Shown here piece after piece: positions 37,232 through 47,936 of a DNA stretch of 64,000 nucleotides. The notes under the pieces were generated by a model. The model did no database searches. It was not told where the DNA came from and worked only from the letters and a program-made list of their open reading frames with translations. The DNA comes from Candidatus Woesearchaeota archaeon. Lineage in GTDB: Archaea > Nanobdellota > Nanobdellia > Woesearchaeales > JABIAG01. The number at the start of each line of letters is the position of its first letter. The first letter of the stretch is position 1. The stretch is taken from assembly GCA_018653365.1 (NCBI GenBank), contig JABIAG010000001.1, forward strand, positions 352,001 through 416,000, given 5' to 3'. The translations under genes were made by a program, and so were the position numbers.

Positions 37232-38227
37232 TTAAGCACTCGCAGCAACTAAATACATTGACTGAGCCCAACCTAATGGAGTGTTCTCATTCTGAATAAT
37301 TGAGTTGCCTAAGTATAATTCGGGCATTTCTTTATCAGGTGTCATAACATCCAAAGTTTTACGCATATAATAAGCATACTTATCTGGCTTGTTAAGAACT
37401 TTATAAATTTGAGCTAACCAGGGAAAACCCATGGTCCAACTAGGTTCTTGACCATTATTGTAGTACAAATCTCCAACATAACGAATAACGCCTTGTTTTC
37501 GAACTAACTTATTCTCAATGTTAGTGAGTATTTGTTCAGCCTGTTCTTTAGAAACAATGTTATAGGGATATATTAATGAAAGTAATGCTAAATCACAATC
37601 TTTGGTTGCAGATTCATTAGGTAATAATTTGTTTAATGTTTCTTCTCCTTTTTTAATAAGTGAGAGAGGGACATTAACAATTTTTGAAATCTTTTTTAAA
37701 CCAGCAACGCAAGCACCAACGCTAGAAGCATGAACTTCTTCGTTTTCTTCCCACATACCATTATCTTTATCTTGCCAGTATTCGATTGATAATAAGTAAT
37801 CAACTAATTTCTGTAAAATTCTTCGATGAACATCACTTCTAATTATTTTAATGCCTTTTTCTTCTAATTCTCCAACTTTAAATAAGAAAGCACCAATAGC
37901 ATCATTCTGCTTATTGCCCCAATCTTCATAAATTTCATCAAAAGTAATTGGATCATAACGAGCATGAATGTATTGATATTTCTCAGTTGGTTTTTGTTTT
38001 ATTGCATGATCGATTTTATACTCGTGTTTTAAGAAAATCTCAAATAAAGCCCAAAACGCTTTCTTAACTTCTTTTAAATTTTTAGTAGCTTCTAAACCCA
38101 GACTTTCATAAATACAATCTCGGATCCAAGCTTTATTATACCCTGTAGAAACCTCTTTTTTACTAGCTGAAAATAGGCCTGAGGGATGTTGTAGTTCTTT
38201 TAATATGGTGATTGATTTTTCTATCAT
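37232..38227 (-). CDS. Glycoside hydrolase family 15 (glucoamylase-like)
   Basis: GLFSAS, YNKAWIRD, KQNDAIG, DNGMWEE, HASSVG, GVIRY.GD.Y, PLGWAQS. Confidence 0.88.
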   Translation of the reverse strand: MIEKSITILKELQHPSGLFSASKKEVSTGYNKAWIRDCIYESLGLEATKNLKEVKKAFWALFEIFLKHEYKIDHAIKQKPTEKYQYIHARYDPITFDEIYEDWGNKQNDAIGAFLFKVGELEEKGIKIIRSDVHRRILQKLVDYLLSIEYWQDKDNGMWEENEEVHASSVGACVAGLKKISKIVNVPLSLIKKGEETLNKLLPNESATKDCDLALLSLIYPYNIVSKEQAEQILTNIENKLVRKQGVIRYVGDLYYNNGQEPSWTMGFPWLAQIYKVLNKPDKYAYYMRKTLDVMTPDKEMPELYLGNSIIQNENTPLGWAQSMYLVAASA

Positions 38228-38244: not shown

Positions 38245-38352
38245 TTATACTGTTGCTTCTTGTGATTCACTTGATTTAGTCCAACATTCATCACACATTG
38301 GTTGATCCAAGTAAATTATTTCAGCTTCTTTATTACATTTAACACATTTCAT
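38245..38352 (-). CDS. 35-aa zinc-finger microprotein (absent from ORF track)
   Basis: MKCVKCNKEAEIIYLDQPMCDECWTKSSESQEATV; ATGA overlap with the upstream stop; AGGAG SD. Confidence 0.7.
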   Translation of the reverse strand: MKCVKCNKEAEIIYLDQPMCDECWTKSSESQEATV

Positions 38353-38762
38353 TTGGTTCTCCTTTCTTTATGATAAATTTCTACTGTTTTTGCATCACCT
38401 GCTTTAAGTTTTCTAACCACATCAATTCCTACTGATGCTCCTGAATCAAGGTTATATACTGGAACGGGGTCATCAGCTCCCATTGGTTGGATGTGCGCAA
38501 ATTTAGCAGTATGAGTAACTCTTCTAACAACATAGTGCATTTCAGGCGGTAGGCTGTGTTCAACTGCAATTATTGCTGGTTCTCTGTTGTCTCTTAATGT
38601 AGGATCTTGACTGGGAGTTGCTAGGTCTCTGATGCTTGTTGTTCTTAACGCAGCTAATTTTTCTTCAGACTCTCGTAAACCTCGAAGTGTTTTTTGTGTT
38701 TCTTCTCTTTCTCTTGCCCAACGTGCTTCTTTTTCTGCAAATGTTTCTGTTAAAGGGTTCAT
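38349..38762 (-). CDS. Hypothetical protein
   Basis: 137-aa ORF coupled to genes on both sides. Confidence 0.65.
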   Translation of the reverse strand: MNPLTETFAEKEARWAREREETQKTLRGLRESEEKLAALRTTSIRDLATPSQDPTLRDNREPAIIAVEHSLPPEMHYVVRRVTHTAKFAHIQPMGADDPVPVYNLDSGASVGIDVVRKLKAGDAKTVEIYHKERRTK

Positions 38763-39059
38763 CTAGTCCTCCATACAAGCGCAAGGTGCAAAACCTTTGT
38801 TTAAAGCATCAATCTTTGAACTAAATGCAATCTTATTCTTTGAAATAATTCGTTTAGCAACAGGGCAGTTTTCAACATGAACTTTTTTACCTTTAATTGT
38901 GGCAATGAGCCGTTTAGCTGATTTTTGCACCTTAATTGAGTTAAGGTAAGAAATAACCTTACGTTGGGTTTCTATTAATTCATTAATTCTCTCATTAATG
39001 TTATTAATGTCCTGTTTCACTCTTGTAAAACTTCTTATGACTTCTGTTTCGTTTACCAT
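38763..39059 (-). CDS. Hypothetical protein with C-terminal Ada-like metal-binding motif
   Basis: N-terminal coiled coil; KKVHVENCPVAKRI...ALNKGFAPCAC. Confidence 0.75.
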   Translation of the reverse strand: MVNETEVIRSFTRVKQDINNINERINELIETQRKVISYLNSIKVQKSAKRLIATIKGKKVHVENCPVAKRIISKNKIAFSSKIDALNKGFAPCACMED

Positions 39060-39163
39060 AATATTAGAAGTCTAGAACTAATATATAAATGTTTTGATTA
39101 TGTTACTACTTCAGAGTAGTTTAAAGCGAAATATTTAAATAGGATTCGCGCTTAAACAGGTCT

Positions 39164-39481
39164 ATGAATAGAATAAAATCAGTAATTGTATCGCTGGGCG
39201 CGTTAGTTTTAACAGGATGTGCTACTTTGGATCATTCAGGTGACACGTTTTTACAAACACCTGAAAGGATGCGAAGATTTGCAGTAAAACATCCAGGGAT
39301 TCACATTCAAAAATTGGAACGAAATGGGGAAGTAGAATTCTATTGGTATGGTAAATACAATGGATTGCATTTCGGTGAAGGATACACAAATCCTGCTTTA
39401 AGAGATGGAAATAGTCGTGATGGTGCTGCAAATGCTGAAAGACTAGGTTATACTGTACAAGATGTGGAGAGTATAGAATAA
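39164..39481 (+). CDS. Putative lipoprotein
   Basis: Signal peptide with lipobox LTGC. Confidence 0.65.
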   Translation: MNRIKSVIVSLGALVLTGCATLDHSGDTFLQTPERMRRFAVKHPGIHIQKLERNGEVEFYWYGKYNGLHFGEGYTNPALRDGNSRDGAANAERLGYTVQDVESIE

Positions 39482-39482
39482 A

Positions 39483-40964
39483 ATGGTTGTAAATTTGCTT
39501 GGAATAGAAAAAAGAGGCATACCTCATGCTAAATTATTAGCTTGTGCTATTTTGGCTTCGGATAAACTGACTCAATCTTCTGATTTGCCAGAGGTTATTA
39601 ATGATTATATTTTGTCAACTGATGAGGTCGCTTTGGGTGAACGCCAGGGGAGTGATCGTGAGGTGGCAATTAGACGGGAAGGACAGATTTTAAATGCAAC
39701 TCTTATTGAACAACATCTACCTAGAACATTTCAAGAGTTTGTTCAAACCTTGGAAGGTATGTTTAAGGAGGGCTATGAAAGCTTTTTACGAAAGCCTCTT
39801 GGTGAGGATGAGGACATGTTATTCTTTGACCCTGAAAACGACACTTCTTATCATGTGCGAGAAACGCGTAAGGAGTTAAAACCTGGTTTTGGATCTGATC
39901 GACTTGTGGCACTAAAATTATTGGTTGAGGGAGAGGGAAAAACAAATTCTTTTGGAATGGTTGCAAAAAGTTGTACTGCACCTGAAATGGCATTACGTGA
40001 ACAATTAATTTATGGTTTGATTCCTGAAATTTCAGAATTGGCTGAGTTGGGAGTTAGACCGATTCCATTTTATGGTAGGTTGGGAAGAGAAGTTTGTATG
40101 GGGTTAGCGCCTGGAGAAAATCTTGAAACAGTATTAAATGACCCTTCTTTGTCTGAAGATTTAAAAGAACAATTAAAACAAAAAGTTCTTTGCGCAACAC
40201 AGCTGATAGAACGAAGAACTAAACAATACTTGGCAAACCAGTTAGTGGATGATGCTCAATTAGGTAATGAAGATGCCCGTCAATTAAAGGACAGACTTGA
40301 ACAAGCAGTTTATGAGTTTGAAATAGCTAAACAAAGTGATTTAATATCTCCTGAAGCACGAGCAATGATTCCTGAGTTGAGTGCGAAGGCTAAAAAAAGA
40401 ATTGCAGAGTTATCTACTGTAAGAATTGGAAAAACAATTCAGCCAGGGGATACATATTTCGAGGAAAAAGCAAGAGGTGGAAGACAGGTATGTAATCTTG
40501 GTGAATCACATAAGGACGCTTTGGTTGAACTTGAAAGAAGGGGATTGTTAAAAACACACCTGGATGATCCAAGATATGCAAATTGGAATTATGATGTGAG
40601 CACGGATACTTTATATCCTATTGATTTTGGGCTAATTGATATTGGGAGTGAGTATAGTCATTTAGGAAGATTGCATGATTTGAGTGGAAATCGAGCAAAA
40701 AGAGAGGAAGTGCTTGCAGGATTAGCGAGCGCTGAAGATGCAAGACTTTCAATTTATTTTGGTGGGTTAAAAGCATTAAGAGATCATGAAGACAGAGGGA
40801 AAAAAGGATTTTATTGGACTCGACTTCCAATTTGTCATGCAGATGTATGTAAGTTGGCCGAAAATAATGCTGTTTGGCATGGTTTAAAACAAGATTTTGA
40901 AAAACATTATGGTGAAGATTTAAGAAGCTTAAAGCAAGATTCCAAGAGCAGGGCTACAGCATAA
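39483..40964 (+). CDS. Protein-kinase-like (APH/phosphotransferase fold) protein
   Basis: VAK (beta3 Lys), RE (alphaC), MGLAPGENL hinge, HLDDPRYAN catalytic loop, IDFG. Confidence 0.6.
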   Translation: MVVNLLGIEKRGIPHAKLLACAILASDKLTQSSDLPEVINDYILSTDEVALGERQGSDREVAIRREGQILNATLIEQHLPRTFQEFVQTLEGMFKEGYESFLRKPLGEDEDMLFFDPENDTSYHVRETRKELKPGFGSDRLVALKLLVEGEGKTNSFGMVAKSCTAPEMALREQLIYGLIPEISELAELGVRPIPFYGRLGREVCMGLAPGENLETVLNDPSLSEDLKEQLKQKVLCATQLIERRTKQYLANQLVDDAQLGNEDARQLKDRLEQAVYEFEIAKQSDLISPEARAMIPELSAKAKKRIAELSTVRIGKTIQPGDTYFEEKARGGRQVCNLGESHKDALVELERRGLLKTHLDDPRYANWNYDVSTDTLYPIDFGLIDIGSEYSHLGRLHDLSGNRAKREEVLAGLASAEDARLSIYFGGLKALRDHEDRGKKGFYWTRLPICHADVCKLAENNAVWHGLKQDFEKHYGEDLRSLKQDSKSRATA

Positions 40965-41768
40965 GTTAATTAATCTTGCAATTTCTAATAAATGATTGGC
41001 AGAGACTAAATTTCCTTTAAGATATTTTTCGGGGGAATGGAAAATCTTTTTTGTAATTTCAAAAACTTGATTTATTTTTTCTAAGTCTTTTTCAAAAAAT
41101 CCTTCATGTAAGTTTTTAAAAGCTTCAATAATTTTGTTAAGTAATTCTTTGTTAAGATTTTTTTTGTTTGGTGTAAGGTAGTATATTCTTCTATGAACCC
41201 AGGCAACAGTAGAAATGAAACTCCAGTAAAAGTGCGTTTTTTCTTTTTCAATGGATTTTTTGGAAATACTTCGTCTACAAAAGTTATCGATCATAACCAC
41301 TTCAACAGATGAGTTTTCAATGTTATTGGTTTTGGTTTTAAGATCGGCTAAATCAGTAACAATGATGAAGAACATTCTTCTTAATAGGGTATCAAACTTA
41401 TCAGAATTTGGTTCAGTAAGGTTTTCTAAGAGAATGTGAGGTGATGTTTTAGTTATTTGCCAACCTAGTAGTTTTGGGAGAGCAGTTTCAATGGCTTTTA
41501 ATGCATCTTTGTTTTGAGTGTTTATTTTTAAAACATCATATCCTGTTCTATATGCATTGTTTAAAATGTAACGGATAAAGTGATTATTGTGATTATCTAG
41601 GGTTATTTCTCCTTCTTTTTTTTGTGTTGAATTGGTTTTTATTGTTAAAGAATTTTTTTCTTCAATTACATCAATTTCTTCTTTTTTTTCAATGCCATGT
41701 TCTTGAACCCATTTTTTGGGGAGTGTGATGGTGTATGAATTTTTTTGTTTTATGATTTTACGTTTCAT
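40929..41768 (-). CDS. AbrB/MazE-domain, PhoU-like transcriptional regulator
   Basis: MKRKIIKQ..SYTITLPKKWV, AYRTGYD, LLRRMF, DNFCRR. Confidence 0.85.
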   Translation of the reverse strand: MKRKIIKQKNSYTITLPKKWVQEHGIEKKEEIDVIEEKNSLTIKTNSTQKKEGEITLDNHNNHFIRYILNNAYRTGYDVLKINTQNKDALKAIETALPKLLGWQITKTSPHILLENLTEPNSDKFDTLLRRMFFIIVTDLADLKTKTNNIENSSVEVVMIDNFCRRSISKKSIEKEKTHFYWSFISTVAWVHRRIYYLTPNKKNLNKELLNKIIEAFKNLHEGFFEKDLEKINQVFEITKKIFHSPEKYLKGNLVSANHLLEIARLINLCCSPALGILL

Positions 41769-41898
41769 GAATTTGGTTAAGTGGTCGGGGTATATAAATC
41801 TTTCTAAAATATACGAAACATACGCTTACTATGGGAAACGTACATAACGTAGATATGTGTTCCCTTACTAGTGATAAAAACATCACGGAGAAACAAAA

Positions 41899-42273
41899 AT
41901 GCAGTTTAATAATGATGTTCCAAGGAGTATGGAAAATTCCGTACAACAAACACTTGATGCTATGGCAAAGGATGGATTTATTTCATTAGTTAACCCAGAA
42001 ACTGGATTTAAACACATAGTACAATGTCCTACACAACCTGTAATGCTGTTTAATCCTAACCTAGCAGAACCTTATGAACAAAAAGGAATGCTTACTGCAA
42101 GAATTTACGATCCGGAAATAAAACAGCTTCGACTTGCAACAAATAAAGGAGAAAGAGTACGAATCCAAATTGTTGGAGAACGAGTTCGTGGACAGGCATG
42201 GATCAATAAAAAACTAACTGAGGATTGGGAATTGCCTTATCATATTGAAGGTTGTAATGGGGGGCAAGAATGA
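41899..42273 (+). CDS. Hypothetical protein (module A; paralog of the N-terminal half of 44005)
   Basis: GGAG SD; clear similarity to the 44005 product. Confidence 0.8.
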   Translation: MQFNNDVPRSMENSVQQTLDAMAKDGFISLVNPETGFKHIVQCPTQPVMLFNPNLAEPYEQKGMLTARIYDPEIKQLRLATNKGERVRIQIVGERVRGQAWINKKLTEDWELPYHIEGCNGGQE

Positions 42274-42560
42274 ATACTTTTACAAAATATTTGCCCAACC
42301 CTGGATGTTCTTTAGAAACTGGAGTGGCAGTATTGGATGTTAAAACTGGAACTTATGTTGCAACTTATACACAAGATCCGGGAGTGCACCCACAAATGAT
42401 TGTACCTGTTGTTGTAAGAGCACCAACTAATGATGTCAACAGAGTTTGTTTAAGACAAACTCAAAAAAACGAATCCTATGCGGTTACGCAACGACTTTTG
42501 AGTTTAGATGATCAGATTAGAGAAATAGAAATTAAAAGACAAGAAAGGATGAAAAAATGA
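42270..42560 (+). CDS. Hypothetical protein (module B; paralog of 45020)
   Basis: ATGA coupling; similarity to the 45020 product. Confidence 0.8.
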   Translation: MNTFTKYLPNPGCSLETGVAVLDVKTGTYVATYTQDPGVHPQMIVPVVVRAPTNDVNRVCLRQTQKNESYAVTQRLLSLDDQIREIEIKRQERMKK

Positions 42561-43462
42561 ATCAAACATATACTTTAAATCGAAAAAAAATTGAAGGTGC
42601 TCTGGAAAGCGTGTTAGATAGTTGTAGGACTGTGGGAGCGTATAGAGCAGTTGAATCACTTAATAACGTGTCTGATGAATTGGATCTGGCAGATTTAGTT
42701 TTGGAGCGAGATCCAATCGTTGAAAGACTTATGTCTGCACAACTGGATGTACAAGAAGCAGAATGGAAAGAGACCAATCAAGAATTAGCAAAAGCATTAG
42801 ATGGCGATGAACACGCACAAAAAATCTATTTGGCTGAACATTTTTTTAATGCTATACAATTACAGGCCCTGGGTGGAAAAAGAGATATTTGTTTCTCACT
42901 TCTTGATGGACTTGAACAAACGTTATCTATTGATGAAACTGAAGTTTGTGCTAAAGCTTATGCAATTCGAGGAAAAGTAGCATATGAACGAGCTGAATTA
43001 TTAATGTTGTCCGAAGAATCAGATTTGTTAACTACCGAAGCGATCAAAAAACATTACAAATCAGCAATAAGTAATTTTTCAAGAGCAATTAAGAATAGTT
43101 ATGATATCATAATCCCTGAACGAGCACAGACTCTTCACGAGTTAGCAATACTGGTTGGATTGAATACAGTTTCAGGAAAAGCAATAGCAAAGCTTGCAGT
43201 AGCAGATTATCAAAAAGCCTTTACAAAAGGTTATGTTGATGAAACCTTAATATTTCAATTGGATGATATAGCAAAAATCTGCTCATTAGAAGGAAATAAC
43301 TCTTTTGTGATACAATTGGGAGATAATTTACTTGAACAAGCAGAAGATTCTCGTTTAAAACAGATTGGATATCGTGCACTTTCTCAACATTGTAGGCGAA
43401 CGGGAGACTTGGAACTAAATCGATGGTATGATCAACAACTACAGGGGGTAGAAAATGTTTAA
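42557..43462 (+). CDS. Hypothetical alpha-helical (TPR-like) protein
   Basis: ATGA coupling; AYAIRG, AISNFSRAI, AVADYQKA TPR-like patterns. Confidence 0.7.
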   Translation: MNQTYTLNRKKIEGALESVLDSCRTVGAYRAVESLNNVSDELDLADLVLERDPIVERLMSAQLDVQEAEWKETNQELAKALDGDEHAQKIYLAEHFFNAIQLQALGGKRDICFSLLDGLEQTLSIDETEVCAKAYAIRGKVAYERAELLMLSEESDLLTTEAIKKHYKSAISNFSRAIKNSYDIIIPERAQTLHELAILVGLNTVSGKAIAKLAVADYQKAFTKGYVDETLIFQLDDIAKICSLEGNNSFVIQLGDNLLEQAEDSRLKQIGYRALSQHCRRTGDLELNRWYDQQLQGVENV

Positions 43463-44015
43463 TAATCACGATTCACAAGAATTATTCATCCCAAAAGATG
43501 CAATTCTTGATGAGGTAATCAAACAAGATACCCGAGAATTGGAACAAATTGGCGGATCCTTTGAAGCAATAGCCGATAGGATGGATCAGTTGATTGAAAC
43601 TGCAGAGGGGATTATTTCTCAAACGCCCAGGGGACAAAAGTGTTGTGCAGATGTAGAACCAAACCTGAGATTCAGAGGATATGTATCCACAAGAGGACTT
43701 CAATTCTGTCCTTTTTCAGATTGTAGAAAATCTGCAACTGAAAGTCGAGAATATCAGTTTATGGCAAGGGCTTCAGGAAAGAGTTTAACAATTAATAGAA
43801 TAACTAGTCATTTAGCAAGACATCATTCTCTATTAGAAAAAGGTAACCAATATGGTATTGGGGCAAGAGAATTCTATGAACATTTCATGCCCGAAGGGTG
43901 TGTAAACGTGCTAATGGGACCTGCTTCTCCAGAAGTTAATGCTGTAAAACACTCACCCTTTGCTCTGCTTATGAGACAAAGAGGAAAATATTCAAGAGGA
44001 AAAAATGAAAGATGA
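43455..44015 (+). CDS. Hypothetical protein with putative Cys/His metal site
   Basis: RGLQFCPFSDC ... HLARHH; overlaps both neighbours. Confidence 0.75.
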   Translation: MFNNHDSQELFIPKDAILDEVIKQDTRELEQIGGSFEAIADRMDQLIETAEGIISQTPRGQKCCADVEPNLRFRGYVSTRGLQFCPFSDCRKSATESREYQFMARASGKSLTINRITSHLARHHSLLEKGNQYGIGAREFYEHFMPEGCVNVLMGPASPEVNAVKHSPFALLMRQRGKYSRGKNER

Positions 44016-44841
44016 AAAAGAAAAAAGAATAATTGATCAGTTTGGATTAGGTAATGCAAAACGATTTGATTTGTTGTCTTTGAATTTTAGACAGCGCGAA
44101 CATACAAACCATAGAGAAGAACAAACAATAAGGGATATGGAAGCAGATGGCTTTTTATCATTGCTTCATCCTGCAACAGGTATGCAACATCTTGTACAAT
44201 ACCCTACTATTCCTGCATTAGTGTTTAATCCTGATTTTGCACCTCCTGAAGGTAAAACTGGTTATTTAACAAGAAGAACTTATGATGCGAAAACTAAAAC
44301 TTTGTTTTTAGAAACTAGCAAAGGAGAAGAAGCAAGATTACAAATAGCAAATGATAGAGTATTTGGAACTGTATGGCAAAACTCTGATGGATCAAGACAA
44401 ACAACAGAACTGTTTGATCTGCCTTATGAGCCAGATGCAAGACGAAGAAAGTTTCTTGAAGAGCACAATTCTGGAATTCGCGATGCATTGAATCAGTTAA
44501 ATGTTGAGAGTGCATGTCTTATATATGATGGAAGAAATTTAAGTGTTATTCTAGAAAGCGAAACTCAAGGGAATCACGTAGTGCATAATATGCCCCTGTC
44601 CTTTCCAACTGGAACTCGAATGGAATTGGTAGATTCAGGAATGACCACTTATATGTTATTGACTGGAAAAGATTTCGTAGATGTTCATGATGTACAAAAA
44701 CGAACCGCTAATTCCGCAATTATAGCATTAAATCCTGAACAGTTAGTTCAAAGAAAAATAATGTATTCTGCAATTGTTCGCGAACCATTTACAATAGTAG
44801 ATTTACAAACAACCATAAATTACATGGGGGGTGAAAAATGA
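44005..44841 (+). CDS. Hypothetical protein (module A' plus extra C-terminal domain)
   Basis: Paralog of the 41899 product. Confidence 0.8.
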   Translation: MKDEKEKRIIDQFGLGNAKRFDLLSLNFRQREHTNHREEQTIRDMEADGFLSLLHPATGMQHLVQYPTIPALVFNPDFAPPEGKTGYLTRRTYDAKTKTLFLETSKGEEARLQIANDRVFGTVWQNSDGSRQTTELFDLPYEPDARRRKFLEEHNSGIRDALNQLNVESACLIYDGRNLSVILESETQGNHVVHNMPLSFPTGTRMELVDSGMTTYMLLTGKDFVDVHDVQKRTANSAIIALNPEQLVQRKIMYSAIVREPFTIVDLQTTINYMGGEK

Positions 44842-45023
44842 ATGAAAATTATCAAACAAGAATAAAAAAACTTCCAAGTATTTTTGGAACTTTGACTGCA
44901 GTAGGAGTTGGAGCGGGACATTATGCAATGACACGAAATGCAGGAGAAGCAGTACTTTGCGCAACTGCAGTAAAAGTATTAGCAAGTTCACTAGATCATC
45001 TAGTTAAAGAGGTATTAAAATGA
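44838..45023 (+). CDS. Small hydrophobic hypothetical protein
   Basis: GGGGGTGA SD, ATGA coupling at both ends, Gly/Ala-rich hydrophobic segments. Confidence 0.7.
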   Translation: MNENYQTRIKKLPSIFGTLTAVGVGAGHYAMTRNAGEAVLCATAVKVLASSLDHLVKEVLK

Positions 45024-45373
45024 ATCGATTTAGAATTTCCTTACCTCATTACAATTGTCAGTTACGATCTGACTATGCTGTGTGGGATGAAAAGGAAAAA
45101 AGGTATGTAGCACAATATATAGAAAAACCAGGATTTCATGGAAGTGTGTGTAAACCAGTAACAGTTATTGCAAATACAACTCGGGCTGACTTGGTAGTTG
45201 CAAGAAAATGTCCTGAAAAGCAAATGACTGTTCAAGAACGAGCAATGGTCCAAGGACTAGAAGCAAAGTTCCAAGCACAACAACCTGACTCATTAGTTGC
45301 AGGTTATATGAAAAAATGGGCAAAAAGAAATGCAAGACCAACAACAGACTCAGAGTCTGATTTGCATTTATGA
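45020..45373 (+). CDS. Hypothetical protein (module B')
   Basis: GAGGT SD; paralog of the 42270 product. Confidence 0.8.
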   Translation: MNRFRISLPHYNCQLRSDYAVWDEKEKRYVAQYIEKPGFHGSVCKPVTVIANTTRADLVVARKCPEKQMTVQERAMVQGLEAKFQAQQPDSLVAGYMKKWAKRNARPTTDSESDLHL

Positions 45374-45380
45374 GGTAAAA

Positions 45381-45956
45381 ATGAATTTAGGACCAAAAAC
45401 ACAAGAACAAGCAAAAGAATTAGGACTTACAGAAACACATCTAGAAGATGTGCAACATTTTTGTATTGAATACGGAACATCTCCTCATGCAGTTGTAAAC
45501 TTCATGTATGAAACAAGATGTTCTGTAGAAGATATTGGGGGGTTGTTAGCAACGCGAGAAGGATTAAAAACAAGTTTTGCAGTTGCAGACCCTCTGGTTG
45601 GGAAAAAATTACAAGCAGTCATTCGTCCAGGGGTTTCATTAAAAGGCCTTTGGGGATATCATCAAGCAACATCAGGGAATGAACCTGTAGATTCAGAAGA
45701 ACTGCTTGAGGAGTTATGTGAAGCACATCATAGGCTGCGCAATACATATCTTTGTCAGAGCATAGCACAAGCAACCCAACTTGCTGAAGTTAAAGGACAA
45801 CAAGCATATAAACTTTGGTTAAGGGGAACAGATGAAATAAGTTATGACCAAGACGATGTCTGGGACAAAGAATACTGCCGGTTTAAAAACGATGAGGCAC
45901 TGGAAGCAGCAAGAAAAGAACGAAGTGAAAAAGGTTATGCAAGACGTAAATGTTAA
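45381..45956 (+). CDS. Hypothetical protein
   Basis: GAGGT SD before ATG 45381; last gene of the operon. Confidence 0.75.
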   Translation: MNLGPKTQEQAKELGLTETHLEDVQHFCIEYGTSPHAVVNFMYETRCSVEDIGGLLATREGLKTSFAVADPLVGKKLQAVIRPGVSLKGLWGYHQATSGNEPVDSEELLEELCEAHHRLRNTYLCQSIAQATQLAEVKGQQAYKLWLRGTDEISYDQDDVWDKEYCRFKNDEALEAARKERSEKGYARRKC

Positions 45957-46064
45957 ACTTGAAACAATTTCTTTTTCTGAAGTCGATAAGCAACTCAAAA
46001 GAATCTGAGTAAGTCATTGTTTGTGTTTGGAAAAGTATATAAATAATAACTGGAGTTGTTAAGA

Positions 46065-47207
46065 ATGCATTTAAGAACTGTTGGAACTTATGAAGTTAAG
46101 GGACAAAGACTTACGGTTGAAAGTCTTAAGTTCAAAGTATTATTTGAAGAAACGAAGCAAGAACTAAGGGGTTTGGGATTAGACGTTGCTGATTATTTTC
46201 AATCTGCTGAAAACCTTCAAGAGTTAGTAACATTATTGGTTCAAGACCCATTTAGTAAAAATATTAAACCAGATTTAAGACATCTCATTCCCGAATTAAC
46301 TGTTAGGTTAATAAACAAAGGAACGCTAACAAAATCATTTAAAGCAAAAAGATTTGTATTAGCAAAAGTAAAAACAGAAGACATTCTTGATTTAAATTTT
46401 AGAATTTATTTGAATGTGGACGAAATCATGCTTTATGCATCAGTAAAGGGTTCGGCTGGTTTATTGGGGCAGTTGGTTACTACCATAAACCACGAACTAA
46501 CGCATTTAATTAATGGAGTTCAAAATCAGTTTGGTAAAAAGGTCGAAAAAAGATTGAATAAGCTTGAGAAAGCTTCAAAAAGAACAAATATTGCGTTTTT
46601 TAAAACTCATTTAATGGATGATGATTTTGAAACCAGCATGCCTTTTGTTACTTTGACAAACCAATTTTATATTTCATTTAGACAAGTATTGATCGGTTTT
46701 CAAATGCTTGTTTTTGAGGAAGGATTAGCAAGATTTAATGAAAAGTTTTCACAAGATTTACAAGCAAGAAGTGCAGGATTGTATTACAAAAGAGCTGTTA
46801 CCCAAGCTAAAATAGTGATAAAAAGATCAAATTTGGTTTTAAACTTACTTAGTTTAACTTCAAAAAGTAATGAAACTAAACGTGTTGAAATTGCAAAATC
46901 ATATCTTGCACAATTTGAAAAAGAAATAAATTCAACTAGTTACGCAATAGGTTTTTATATTTACTTACGAATATTTGCTAATCAGTTACAAACACGAGAA
47001 GCAATAGATTTAGTTGAATTGTTAAAAATTAAAAATCCCGTACACTTAATTAGGTTATATGAACAAGTTGAAACAGAAAAAAAAGTGATTAGTTTAAAAG
47101 ATAAAAGCGCTATAATTTGTTTCAGAGACCTGGTGGGAAGGGCCAATCAGGAAAGAAAAAGGTTAATTAAATTAGCTGAAGAAGAAAACTGGGATGTAGC
47201 AGCCTAA
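46065..47207 (+). CDS. Hypothetical protein with zincin HExxH motif
   Basis: INHELTH plus downstream FEEGLA; TATA upstream. Confidence 0.6.
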   Translation: MHLRTVGTYEVKGQRLTVESLKFKVLFEETKQELRGLGLDVADYFQSAENLQELVTLLVQDPFSKNIKPDLRHLIPELTVRLINKGTLTKSFKAKRFVLAKVKTEDILDLNFRIYLNVDEIMLYASVKGSAGLLGQLVTTINHELTHLINGVQNQFGKKVEKRLNKLEKASKRTNIAFFKTHLMDDDFETSMPFVTLTNQFYISFRQVLIGFQMLVFEEGLARFNEKFSQDLQARSAGLYYKRAVTQAKIVIKRSNLVLNLLSLTSKSNETKRVEIAKSYLAQFEKEINSTSYAIGFYIYLRIFANQLQTREAIDLVELLKIKNPVHLIRLYEQVETEKKVISLKDKSAIICFRDLVGRANQERKRLIKLAEEENWDVAA

Positions 47208-47258
47208 AGAATTTTTGCGAAACCTTTATAAATAATTCATCAGTTTAAGCTTATATTA

Positions 47259-47285
47259 CCCAATATCACTACTTCGGTAGGAGGG
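47259..47285 (+). promoter_or_regulatory. Candidate uL1-binding translational operator in the rpl1 5' UTR
   Basis: CCC-AATATCA-CTAC-TTCG-GTAG-GA-GGG: two stems, asymmetric loop, cUUCGg tetraloop, overlapping the SD. Confidence 0.55.
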
Positions 47286-47288
47286 AAA

Positions 47289-47936
47289 ATGAACAATAAA
47301 GACGTAATAACTGCATTAAAAAAAGCACGTGAAGGTGCAAAGAAAAGAAAATTCTCTCAAACAATTGAGTTAATAATTAACTTTAGAGGACTAAATCTAA
47401 AAAATCCAGAACAACAATTAGATTTCTATATGCCAATAAAACATCCTTGGAAAGAACTTAAAGTATGTGGAATTGTTGGTGGAGAATTACTAGAAGAATC
47501 AAAAAAATCATTAGACACAACCGTATTTTCTGATGAACTTGGAAGTTATTCTGATAAGAAGAAAATAAAGAAATTAGCAAAAGCACATGATTACTTTGTC
47601 GCACAAGCAGATCTTATGCCACAAGTGGCAACAACCTTTGGAAGAGTATTTGGACCAATAGGAAAAATGCCAAATCCAAAAGCAGGATGTGTAGTACCAC
47701 CTAATGCAAATTTAGAAGCACTAAAACAAAAATTAAACAAAACAATTAATGTTTCTGTAAAAACCGTACCACTTTTACAATTAGGAATGGGAAAAGAAGA
47801 AAGTAAAGACGAAGATATGGCAGAAGACATAATGTCAATATATGATCAAGTTATACACCACTTACCTGGTGAAAAACAAAACATAAAATCAGTTTACGTG
47901 AAATTAACTATGGGAAAACCAGAGAGGATAGAATGA
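47289..47936 (+). CDS. rpl1: 50S ribosomal protein L1
   Basis: KKRKFSQTIELIIN, FVAQADLMP, GRVFGPIGKMPNPK, YVKLTMG. Confidence 0.97.
   Translation: MNNKDVITALKKAREGAKKRKFSQTIELIINFRGLNLKNPEQQLDFYMPIKHPWKELKVCGIVGGELLEESKKSLDTTVFSDELGSYSDKKKIKKLAKAHDYFVAQADLMPQVATTFGRVFGPIGKMPNPKAGCVVPPNANLEALKQKLNKTINVSVKTVPLLQLGMGKEESKDEDMAEDIMSIYDQVIHHLPGEKQNIKSVYVKLTMGKPERIE

Follow-up and report, generated by a model that had tools for sequence, protein, structure and literature searches.

In Bacillus subtilis, the Hanks-type kinases PrkC, PrkD and YabT act on the transition-state regulator AbrB (Kobir et al. 2014, cited in PMC4837961). A similar pairing of a kinase-fold protein, in this case a probable one, with an AbrB-type DNA-binding regulator is found in the 64,000-nucleotide stretch of the genome of a Candidatus Woesearchaeota archaeon studied here (the window), where it lies beside an operon of eight genes (g1-g8) of no recognized family. 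The archaeal pair differs from the Bacillus system in that the two genes are physically coupled, being convergent with a 36-nt overlap, in that about 230 amino acids (aa) on the C-terminal side of the regulator are without family match, and in that the kinase-like protein resembles the aminoglycoside phosphotransferases (APH) rather than the Hanks-type kinases and has no Pfam match.

Orphan gene islands are common in these archaea; in ultrasmall (DPANN-type) archaea the function of many genes is unknown, as is nearly everything about how these organisms sense their surroundings and respond to them. No literature joining DPANN, AbrB, kinase and regulator was found, nor any on Woesearchaeota islands with integrases. 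The reading favoured here, held tentatively and with somewhat less than even confidence, is that of a lineage-specific accessory island whose orphan operon, encoding a soluble multi-protein assembly, is under the control of the kinase-like/AbrB pair. The new points are that the island has been delimited exactly, within a hot spot next to rpl1, that a kinase-regulator pair is coupled to a cargo with an old internal duplication and that a soluble APH-like protein is probably a member of such pairs. The locus is a compact, testable case, in which a tail-to-tail gene pair, a short control region containing a motif repeat and an output of eight defined genes lie together, and its present value is mainly that of a well-delimited target for experiments.

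The eight-gene operon and its paralogous modules

Near the locus, the host genome (G000; 1.09 Mb in three contigs, 95% complete) carries ribosomal genes of archaeal type and a gene resembling that of RNA-polymerase subunit E/Rpb7. According to the list of open reading frames (ORFs), the eight coupled ORFs are all present on the + strand, from 41899 to 45956, and an AbrB-type regulator gene is divergent from them, as the first-pass annotation of this DNA had seen. Of the range 40929..45956 that it gave for the operon, the end stands and the start has to be moved to 41899, since it is the divergent regulator gene that has its 3′ end at 40929. The operon and the genes beside it are laid out as follows:

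39164-39481, + strand: 105-aa protein, with an N-terminal hydrophobic segment (hydropathy 1.85, residues 4-22) and a lipobox-like LTGC; 1 nt upstream of the 493-aa gene
39483-40964, + strand: 493-aa protein, soluble, converging on the regulator with the 36-nt overlap
40929-41768, - strand: regulator, 279 aa, with an AbrB/MazE-type N-terminal DNA-binding domain and the C-terminal part of about 230 aa
41769-41898, no strand assigned: divergent control region between regulator and g1, with a TATA-like box at about 41789-41800 readable on both strands
41899-42273, + strand: g1, module A, 124 aa, isoelectric point (pI) 5.7
42270-42560, + strand: g2, module B, 96 aa, pI 9.0
42557-43462, + strand: g3, 301 aa, all-helical, with a predicted solenoid like those of tetratricopeptide repeats (TPR) at about residues 125-301
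43455-44015, + strand: g4, 186 aa, with 5 Cys and 6 His, including CPFSDC...HLARHH
44005-44841, + strand: g5, module A′, 278 aa, in which residues 39-141 form the A domain and the C-terminal ~135 aa are without match
44838-45023, + strand: g6, 61 aa, small and mildly hydrophobic or amphipathic
45020-45373, + strand: g7, module B′, 117 aa, pI 9.4
45381-45956, + strand: g8, 191 aa from the ATG led by a Shine-Dalgarno (SD) motif (the longest ORF, 45330-45956, has 208 aa); acidic, with 7 Cys in the 208-aa form

Consecutive genes from g1 to g7 overlap by 4, 4, 8, 11, 4 and 4 nt, and an SD-like motif is present at every start of the operon, being purine-rich and located 5-12 nt 5′ of the start in g1-g7. 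For g8, a start at 45381 is more likely than one at 45330, because it has the better SD (‘gaggt’) and the 191-aa form is on record; with this start, g8 lies behind g7 after a 7-nt spacer, without overlap. A T-run is found downstream of g8, at 45969-45978. The eight ORFs were considered to be coding because the low GC content of their third codon positions (0.10-0.24, versus 0.35-0.39 for the whole genes) is the genome’s own pattern, the ratios of non-synonymous to synonymous divergence (dN/dS) of the paralogues, given below, being also cited in this respect. Their synonymous codon use is host-like (z −0.5 to +1.4), and their amino-acid make-up shows, relative to the genome average, more Q and R and less K, I and N. 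With a transmembrane threshold of 1.6 on the hydropathy scan, neither signal peptides nor transmembrane windows above it were found in g1-g8, the maximum of g6 (1.52) being below the threshold.

The internal duplication proposed at first sight, of gene 1 with the N-terminal half of gene 5 and of gene 2 with gene 7, was borne out by alignment. g1 and residues 39-141 of g5 are 47% identical, with a BLASTP E of 1e-31 and a Smith-Waterman z of 47 against 60 shuffles; g2 and g7 are 40% identical over residues 1-63, with E 5e-13 and z 19, again against 60 shuffles. Both paralogies are far beyond chance. The identities range over 43-47% for A/A′ and 37-40% for B/B′, with 57% and 52% identity of the nucleotides, and the synonymous divergence (dS) is >1, near saturation, for both pairs; the duplication is an old one. 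The two A modules are acidic (pI 5.7 and 5.8) and the two B modules basic (9.0 and 9.4). Concerning hidden paralogy, no other pair among 15 island segments had z >5.7, and the best two failed in BLASTP; further copies of the A and B modules were not found elsewhere in the 1.09-Mb genome.

A regulator family with recurrent kinase-fold neighbours

Residues 7-44 of the regulator match PF04014 with 34.9 bits, versus a cut-off of 24.7 (E 1.5e-8). Of the earlier label ‘AbrB/PhoU-like’, the AbrB half is thus secure, while the PhoU half was detected neither in Pfam, where no PhoU family appeared at E ≤1 for the regulator or two of its paralogues, nor in the PDB, where a profile of five members of the regulator family retrieved no PhoU chain at E ≤1. 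The family is multi-copy, with five genes in G000, six in the same-genus genome G001, one in G002 (same genus), three in the same-family genome G003 and seven in G004. The 3′ neighbours were checked for the 15 genes of the first four genomes, the seven of G004 being left out, and in 6/15 cases, each with a regulator gene of its own, the neighbour is a kinase-fold gene:

G000, 580 aa: Pkinase, E 1.2e-13, with a 44-nt overlap with the regulator
G000, 429 aa: APH, 29.6 bits, 3′ neighbour of the regulator
G001, 804 aa: Pkinase, 3′ neighbour of the regulator
G001, 532 aa: APH, 3′ neighbour of the regulator
G003, 456 aa: APH, 22.0 bits, under the cut-off of 23.2, 3′ neighbour of the regulator
G000, island, 493 aa: kinase-like by Atlas only, 3′ neighbour of the regulator

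This link is not due to chance, because G000 has just six Pfam-detectable kinase-fold genes in all (four Pkinase and two APH). The best relative of the island regulator (E 6e-34) is the copy paired with the G001 Pkinase. At another place of G001 (L039 2457-8171, C11), the 532-aa APH gene converges with a 12-nt overlap on a regulator of the same family, which is divergent from an operon of overlapping genes for 338-, 185- and 181-aa proteins of no family; it is the same architecture with unrelated cargo. Regulator-paired kinases turn over fast, and those of Hanks type evolve very fast: for the 580-aa kinase of G000 (G000:C1:616197-617939), neither same-genus genome yielded a match at E ≤1e-5, and matches were obtained in only 4/40 relatives.

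As a separate observation, the gene divergent from another kinase-regulator pair of G000 encodes a sigma-70-like protein of 368 aa (L028 6990-8096 = G000:C1:618989-620095), with bacterial sigma-70 region 4 (PF04545, E 1.8e-11) and a weak region 2, in an archaeal genome.

Concerning the 493-aa protein, which had been missed in the first-pass annotation together with the island context, an APH/protein-kinase-like fold is probable. Its Atlas feature search gave 0.96 to PF01636 (APH) clusters, with 20/30 matches, and its Atlas model, with a predicted local distance difference test score (pLDDT) of 0.60, gave template-modelling (TM) scores by target of 0.58-0.67 versus APH-family models, with 261-299 aligned residues. 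Motifs recognized by eye stand in the kinase order: GFGSDRLVALK (G-loop/VAxK), HLDDPRYAN (HxD...N) and IDFG (DFG-like). In BLASTP, it matched weakly (E 0.004) an APH-family protein of G001 whose gene converges on that of a paralogous regulator. By hydropathy, the protein has no membrane segment.

The control region contains two copies of GAAACRTAC, at 41815 and 41835 (20 nt apart), a short way downstream of the TATA-like box. It contains also the tandem AACGTACAT/AACGTAGAT, and an inverted copy of GAAACGTA occurs within the first codons of the regulator. The GAAACRTAC repeats and the tandem are a candidate operator. The regulator gene is without SD and would be leaderless. A scan for sigma-70 promoters found 25 versus 32.4 expected, without enrichment, such a scan being not applicable to an archaeon.

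From these elements a mechanism may be proposed, in which the eight orphan genes would be a real, co-transcribed operon and the output arm of a self-contained island (38353-47215) placed in a variable chromosomal slot immediately upstream of the rpl1 promoter. The signalling arm would consist of the soluble APH/protein-kinase-like protein, coupled to the small lipoprotein-like protein of 105 aa and to the tail-to-tail-overlapping AbrB-type regulator. The latter would bind the GAAACRTAC repeats below the shared TATA box, repressing the operon and its own leaderless gene, and the kinase-fold protein would alter the DNA binding of the regulator on a signal, presumably by phosphorylation, as Hanks kinases do with AbrB in B. 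subtilis. The output would be eight soluble proteins acting together, possibly as a complex, in which the two old acidic/basic A-B pairs might be held by g3 as a TPR-like scaffold, with g4 and g8 as Cys/His-rich partners. If this were true, the kinase-to-AbrB link of Bacillus would be extended to archaea as a hard-wired gene pair, and such pairs would travel with target operons into variable chromosomal slots.

Several results weigh against this mechanism. The 493-aa protein has no Pfam match at E ≤0.1 and is missed by the genome scans with PF01636 and PF00069; it does not match a local hidden Markov model of seven Hanks kinases (E 1.4), and its best BLASTP E versus the 580-aa Pkinase of G000 is 0.18, with the VAxK stretch aligned only at E 100. 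Its probable kinase fold is drawn from single-source Atlas leads, motifs seen by eye and one weak BLASTP match. APH-family enzymes, moreover, often phosphorylate small molecules and not proteins. Among the regulator-family genes, 9/15 have other 3′ neighbours: a receiver domain, an NTP transferase, TrmB, a hydrolase, a GTPase, SPOUT, an 835-aa protein of no family and two that were not scanned. The enrichment of GAAACRTAC is weak, with four matches in the window versus 0.91 expected and 2/100 shuffles reaching four. The dN/dS values of the two paralogue pairs (~0.48 and 0.54) are only moderately below 1. Finally, no homologue of the queried operon genes was found outside the population described below.

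Predicted structures and the search for relatives

The model of g3, obtained with AlphaFold2 from the single sequence, has pLDDT 75-93 in the C-terminal half, the N-terminal 125 residues being poorly modelled. In Foldseek, nine of the ten best rows were TPR domains (KLC, LGN, CTPR) and one was a designed repeat protein, with a best E of 3.6e-3. Z values in VIA reached 12.9 (YrrB), that for LGN being 12.6, with a root-mean-square deviation (rmsd) of 3.3 Å over 141 aa. Considering the whole set of TPR scaffolds (YrrB 2q7f, LGN/Pins 3ro3 and 4a1s, MamA 3vtx and PilF 2fi7), residues ~125-301 of g3 superpose on them with Z 11.8-12.9, although for helical repeats Z under ~13 may reflect a common arrangement only; the rmsd is 3.0-3.3 Å over 132-141 aa in trimmed alignments. 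Unlike the TPR scaffold proteins, g3 has no Pfam TPR signature at E ≤0.1. So, the ‘TPR’ label given to gene 3 in the first-pass annotation holds as a predicted fold, the C-terminal half being TPR-like in the model, and fails as a sequence family.

The other predictions were less informative. For g5, the single-sequence AlphaFold2 model had a mean pLDDT of 36.6 and was unusable, and the Atlas model had pLDDT 0.37, with no usable feature match in the Atlas and no structural row above TM 0.32. The prediction of a g1-g2 complex, from two-row alignments, scored under the mark and gave no verdict either way. The ‘metal’ label of gene 4 derives from the Cys/His pattern seen by eye.

Concerning families, g1-g8 gave no match at E <0.01 in Pfam, PHROGs, PADLOC or NCBIfam, in keeping with the earlier statement that no family was recognized, and the same was true of the island ORFs of 137, 105, 493 and 383 aa; the 98-aa ORF gave weak library matches only (E ≥0.0016), far under the curated cut-offs. 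In the PADLOC-DB 2.0 scan of the 14 island ORFs, the best E values, 0.0097-0.06, were on the ORFs of 98, 137 and 383 aa (o98, o137 and o383), and none on g1-g8. Sequence searches of the PDB with the A profile, g3, g4 and g8 gave nothing at E <0.2.

Relatives were sought for g1/g5, g3, the 493-aa protein and the 383-aa protein. The g1/g5 profile retrieved, from 1.84 billion cluster representatives, its own two proteins and one repeat-protein artefact, and nothing credible from 400 genomes drawn from the phylum. The artefact, P0003 (2,965 aa; E 2.3e-4, four stretches), is a bacterial protein with a recurring hairpin-like DPD.GEAHVVAQ motif, and its score was interpreted as repeat-driven; the 400 genomes gave two marginal matches, at E 1.6e-3 and 4.4e-3 per genome; both contain in-frame stops and were rejected as chance. 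In a word-based search of a collection of 5.8 billion clusters, g5 and the 493-aa protein matched themselves only and g3 matched nothing. g5 was not found in 60 related genomes, nor the 383-aa protein in 100, and there were no matches of g5 in phage records (tblastn) or metagenome contigs, of the operon DNA in plasmid records (blastn) or of four queries in viral contigs.

The identical proteins have each been recorded from 32-48 contigs, and the only variants (g5 and g8) differ by single residues. All or part of the stretch is present in ten DNA runs, which come from at least three studies and carry the label marine metagenome, and no RNA run containing it is listed; the source is one nearly clonal population. 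The first-pass annotation had thought of an undescribed multi-protein system and had named lack of synteny elsewhere as the result that would speak against it. No relative of the queried genes was found anywhere, and therefore they cannot be called a conserved system. Modules A and B have diverged to 40-47% identity and yet were found nowhere else, which points to a large unsampled gene pool or to very fast evolution.

The insertion slot and alternative explanations

The operon lies within an 8.9-kb insertion (38353-47215) of 14 ORFs: o137, o98, the genes for the 105-aa and 493-aa proteins, the regulator, g1-g8 and o383. A GH15-like gene (37232-38227, - strand) and rpl1 (start at 47289) are the conserved neighbours, and the distance between their starts is 803 bp in G001, with one 149-aa ORF between them, 1,446 bp in G003 and 9,061 bp here. 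The core DNA at the two edges is:

38245-38352, - strand: zinc-ribbon ORF of 35 aa with two CxxC pairs (CxxC...CxxC), at the left island edge, upstream of the GH15-like gene
47216-47288, + strand: rpl1 promoter and leader, conserved, at the right island edge

On the left, homology to G001 and G002 spans the zinc-ribbon ORF and stops at its start codon; this ATG overlaps the stop of o137 (ATGA), the insertion abutting the core gene to the base. On the right, in an alignment of four genomes, homology resumes at AACCTTTATAAA, the rpl1 TATA box being at ~47216. Contigs from other runs bridge both edges without differing letters (X8 record 18 on the left; X7 record 15 and X8 record 23 on the right). 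An empty-site joint skipping the island was not listed in the four sequencing runs examined; the sole joint listed in them lies within rpl1/rplP0, where 787 nt are skipped, one side being 22 nt long, and the loose ends were short pieces of other contigs.

The closest relative is G002, with 84-90% identity of the proteins encoded by the flanking genes. At the same rpl1 junction it has a tyrosine integrase (Phage_integrase PF00589, E 2.6e-7), another ORF of integrase-like sequence and a HARE-HTH protein. A contig break separates this side of the slot from the other, where a PD-(D/E)XK nuclease and a fragment of UvrD are encoded. This content looks like a different integrated element or a defence island. 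The slot holds element genes in G002 and is therefore a hot spot for foreign DNA. A small AbrB-like ORF was also seen in the G002 slot (L014 3197-6354, L015 1-1871).

This location makes it necessary to consider that the island could be a decayed integrated virus or plasmid that has lost its integrase and ends, g1-g8 being fast-evolving element genes, for example for morphogenesis or host takeover, from an unsampled mobile pool. It is the main alternative, and an origin that we consider somewhat improbable. The 8.9 kb inserted relative to G001 and G003, at a slot with an integrase in a sister genome, lend support to it, and with it to the ‘domesticated mobile element’ of the first-pass annotation, as do the absence of relatives of the queried island genes from 60-100 related genomes and the amino-acid make-up unlike that of the host. 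The sister species searched lack the genes despite the age of the A/A′ and B/B′ duplication, and therefore the genes must have persisted elsewhere or evolved very fast. Like archaeal integrase-bearing elements, of which that of G002 is an example, the island occupies the same slot, is a block of genes without family and is absent from the sister species searched. Unlike such elements, it has no integrase, no att-like repeats and neither capsid nor replication genes, and it shares no protein with the G002 element. Indeed, the statement that neither integrase nor capsid was to be seen in the island was upheld: no integrase or recombinase family was found by Pfam in its 14 ORFs, no PHROG match at E <0.01 was obtained for any of them, and the G002 integrase matches nothing in G000 at E ≤1. 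No pair of direct repeats spans the two edges, no tRNA is present in the window or in the sister loci, and the negative searches of phage, plasmid and viral sequences, the host-like synonymous codon use and the lack of an island-skipping joint in the four runs also count against a mobile remnant. In addition, the regulator is a member of a family that is chromosomal in this lineage, and the same appears to be true of the kinase-like gene. An origin as a mobile remnant may hold even if the regulatory reading is right. According to a more elaborate proposal, which is unlikely, the island is a complete, portable unit of sensing and response of ultrasmall archaea, whose soluble kinase-fold sensor, together with an AbrB-type regulator, turns on a cytoplasmic machine of eight proteins. 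This machine would comprise the two ancient A-B pairs, a scaffold of TPR type and partners rich in Cys and His, all from families for which the present searches gave no relatives, and the unit would have been imported from a mobile gene pool of these archaea that is still unsampled.

Two further explanations, both with little support, concern the function of the products; the role in stress, defence or host interaction supposed in the first-pass annotation was not borne out by the PADLOC and hydropathy scans. A conflict system, for defence or toxin-immunity, would have g5 as a conserved A domain joined to a variable C-terminal toxin, g6 just behind it as the immunity protein and g1-g2 as a toxin-less paralogous pair. 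It would account for the ~135-aa C-terminal extra of g5, followed by a 61-aa gene that the g1-g2 pair lacks, and for the acidic A/basic B pairing, of a kind seen in toxin-antitoxin pairs; the presence of nuclease and helicase genes in the G002 slot would also fit. However, there is no PADLOC match on g1-g8 and no toxin or immunity family in Pfam or NCBIfam, the eight products have no secretion signal, and the argument from architecture is by analogy only, so that we regard a conflict system as quite unlikely. It is still less probable that the products act on a host cell or at the cell surface, in a symbiont-host interaction. Organisms of this kind are thought to be host-dependent, and the island gene at 39164-39481, outside the operon, has a signal- and lipobox-like N-terminus, but g1-g8 have neither signal peptides nor transmembrane windows above 1.6, and no adhesin, pilin or secretion family was matched in Pfam or NCBIfam. 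Compared with these alternatives, the accessory island with a kinase-like/AbrB control pair remains the reading that we prefer.

The remaining genes of the island are placed at its two ends:

38349-38762, - strand: o137, 137 aa, no family
38763-39059, - strand: o98, 98 aa, with a coiled-coil-like N-terminal part and a Cys/His C-terminal end
46065-47207, + strand: o383, 380 aa from the ATG at 46065 (the longest ORF, from the TTG at 46056, has 383 aa); last gene of the island

o98 is without SD and has a TATA-like box ~25-30 nt upstream. It ends in a pattern of His and Cys (H…CP…PCAC) that is reminiscent of the small zinc-binding domains of Ada type, for which no match was obtained in Pfam. o383 has its own TATA-like box and SD, and it contains a HELTH (HExxH) motif as in zinc metalloproteases, without a match to any protease family.

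At the right edge, four genomes of the family agree almost completely in the rpl1 promoter and its ~70-nt leader (…CTTATATTACCCAATATCACTACTTCGGTAGGAGGGAAAATG), which would be compatible with a structured leader. Structured leaders are used for L1 autoregulation in other archaea.

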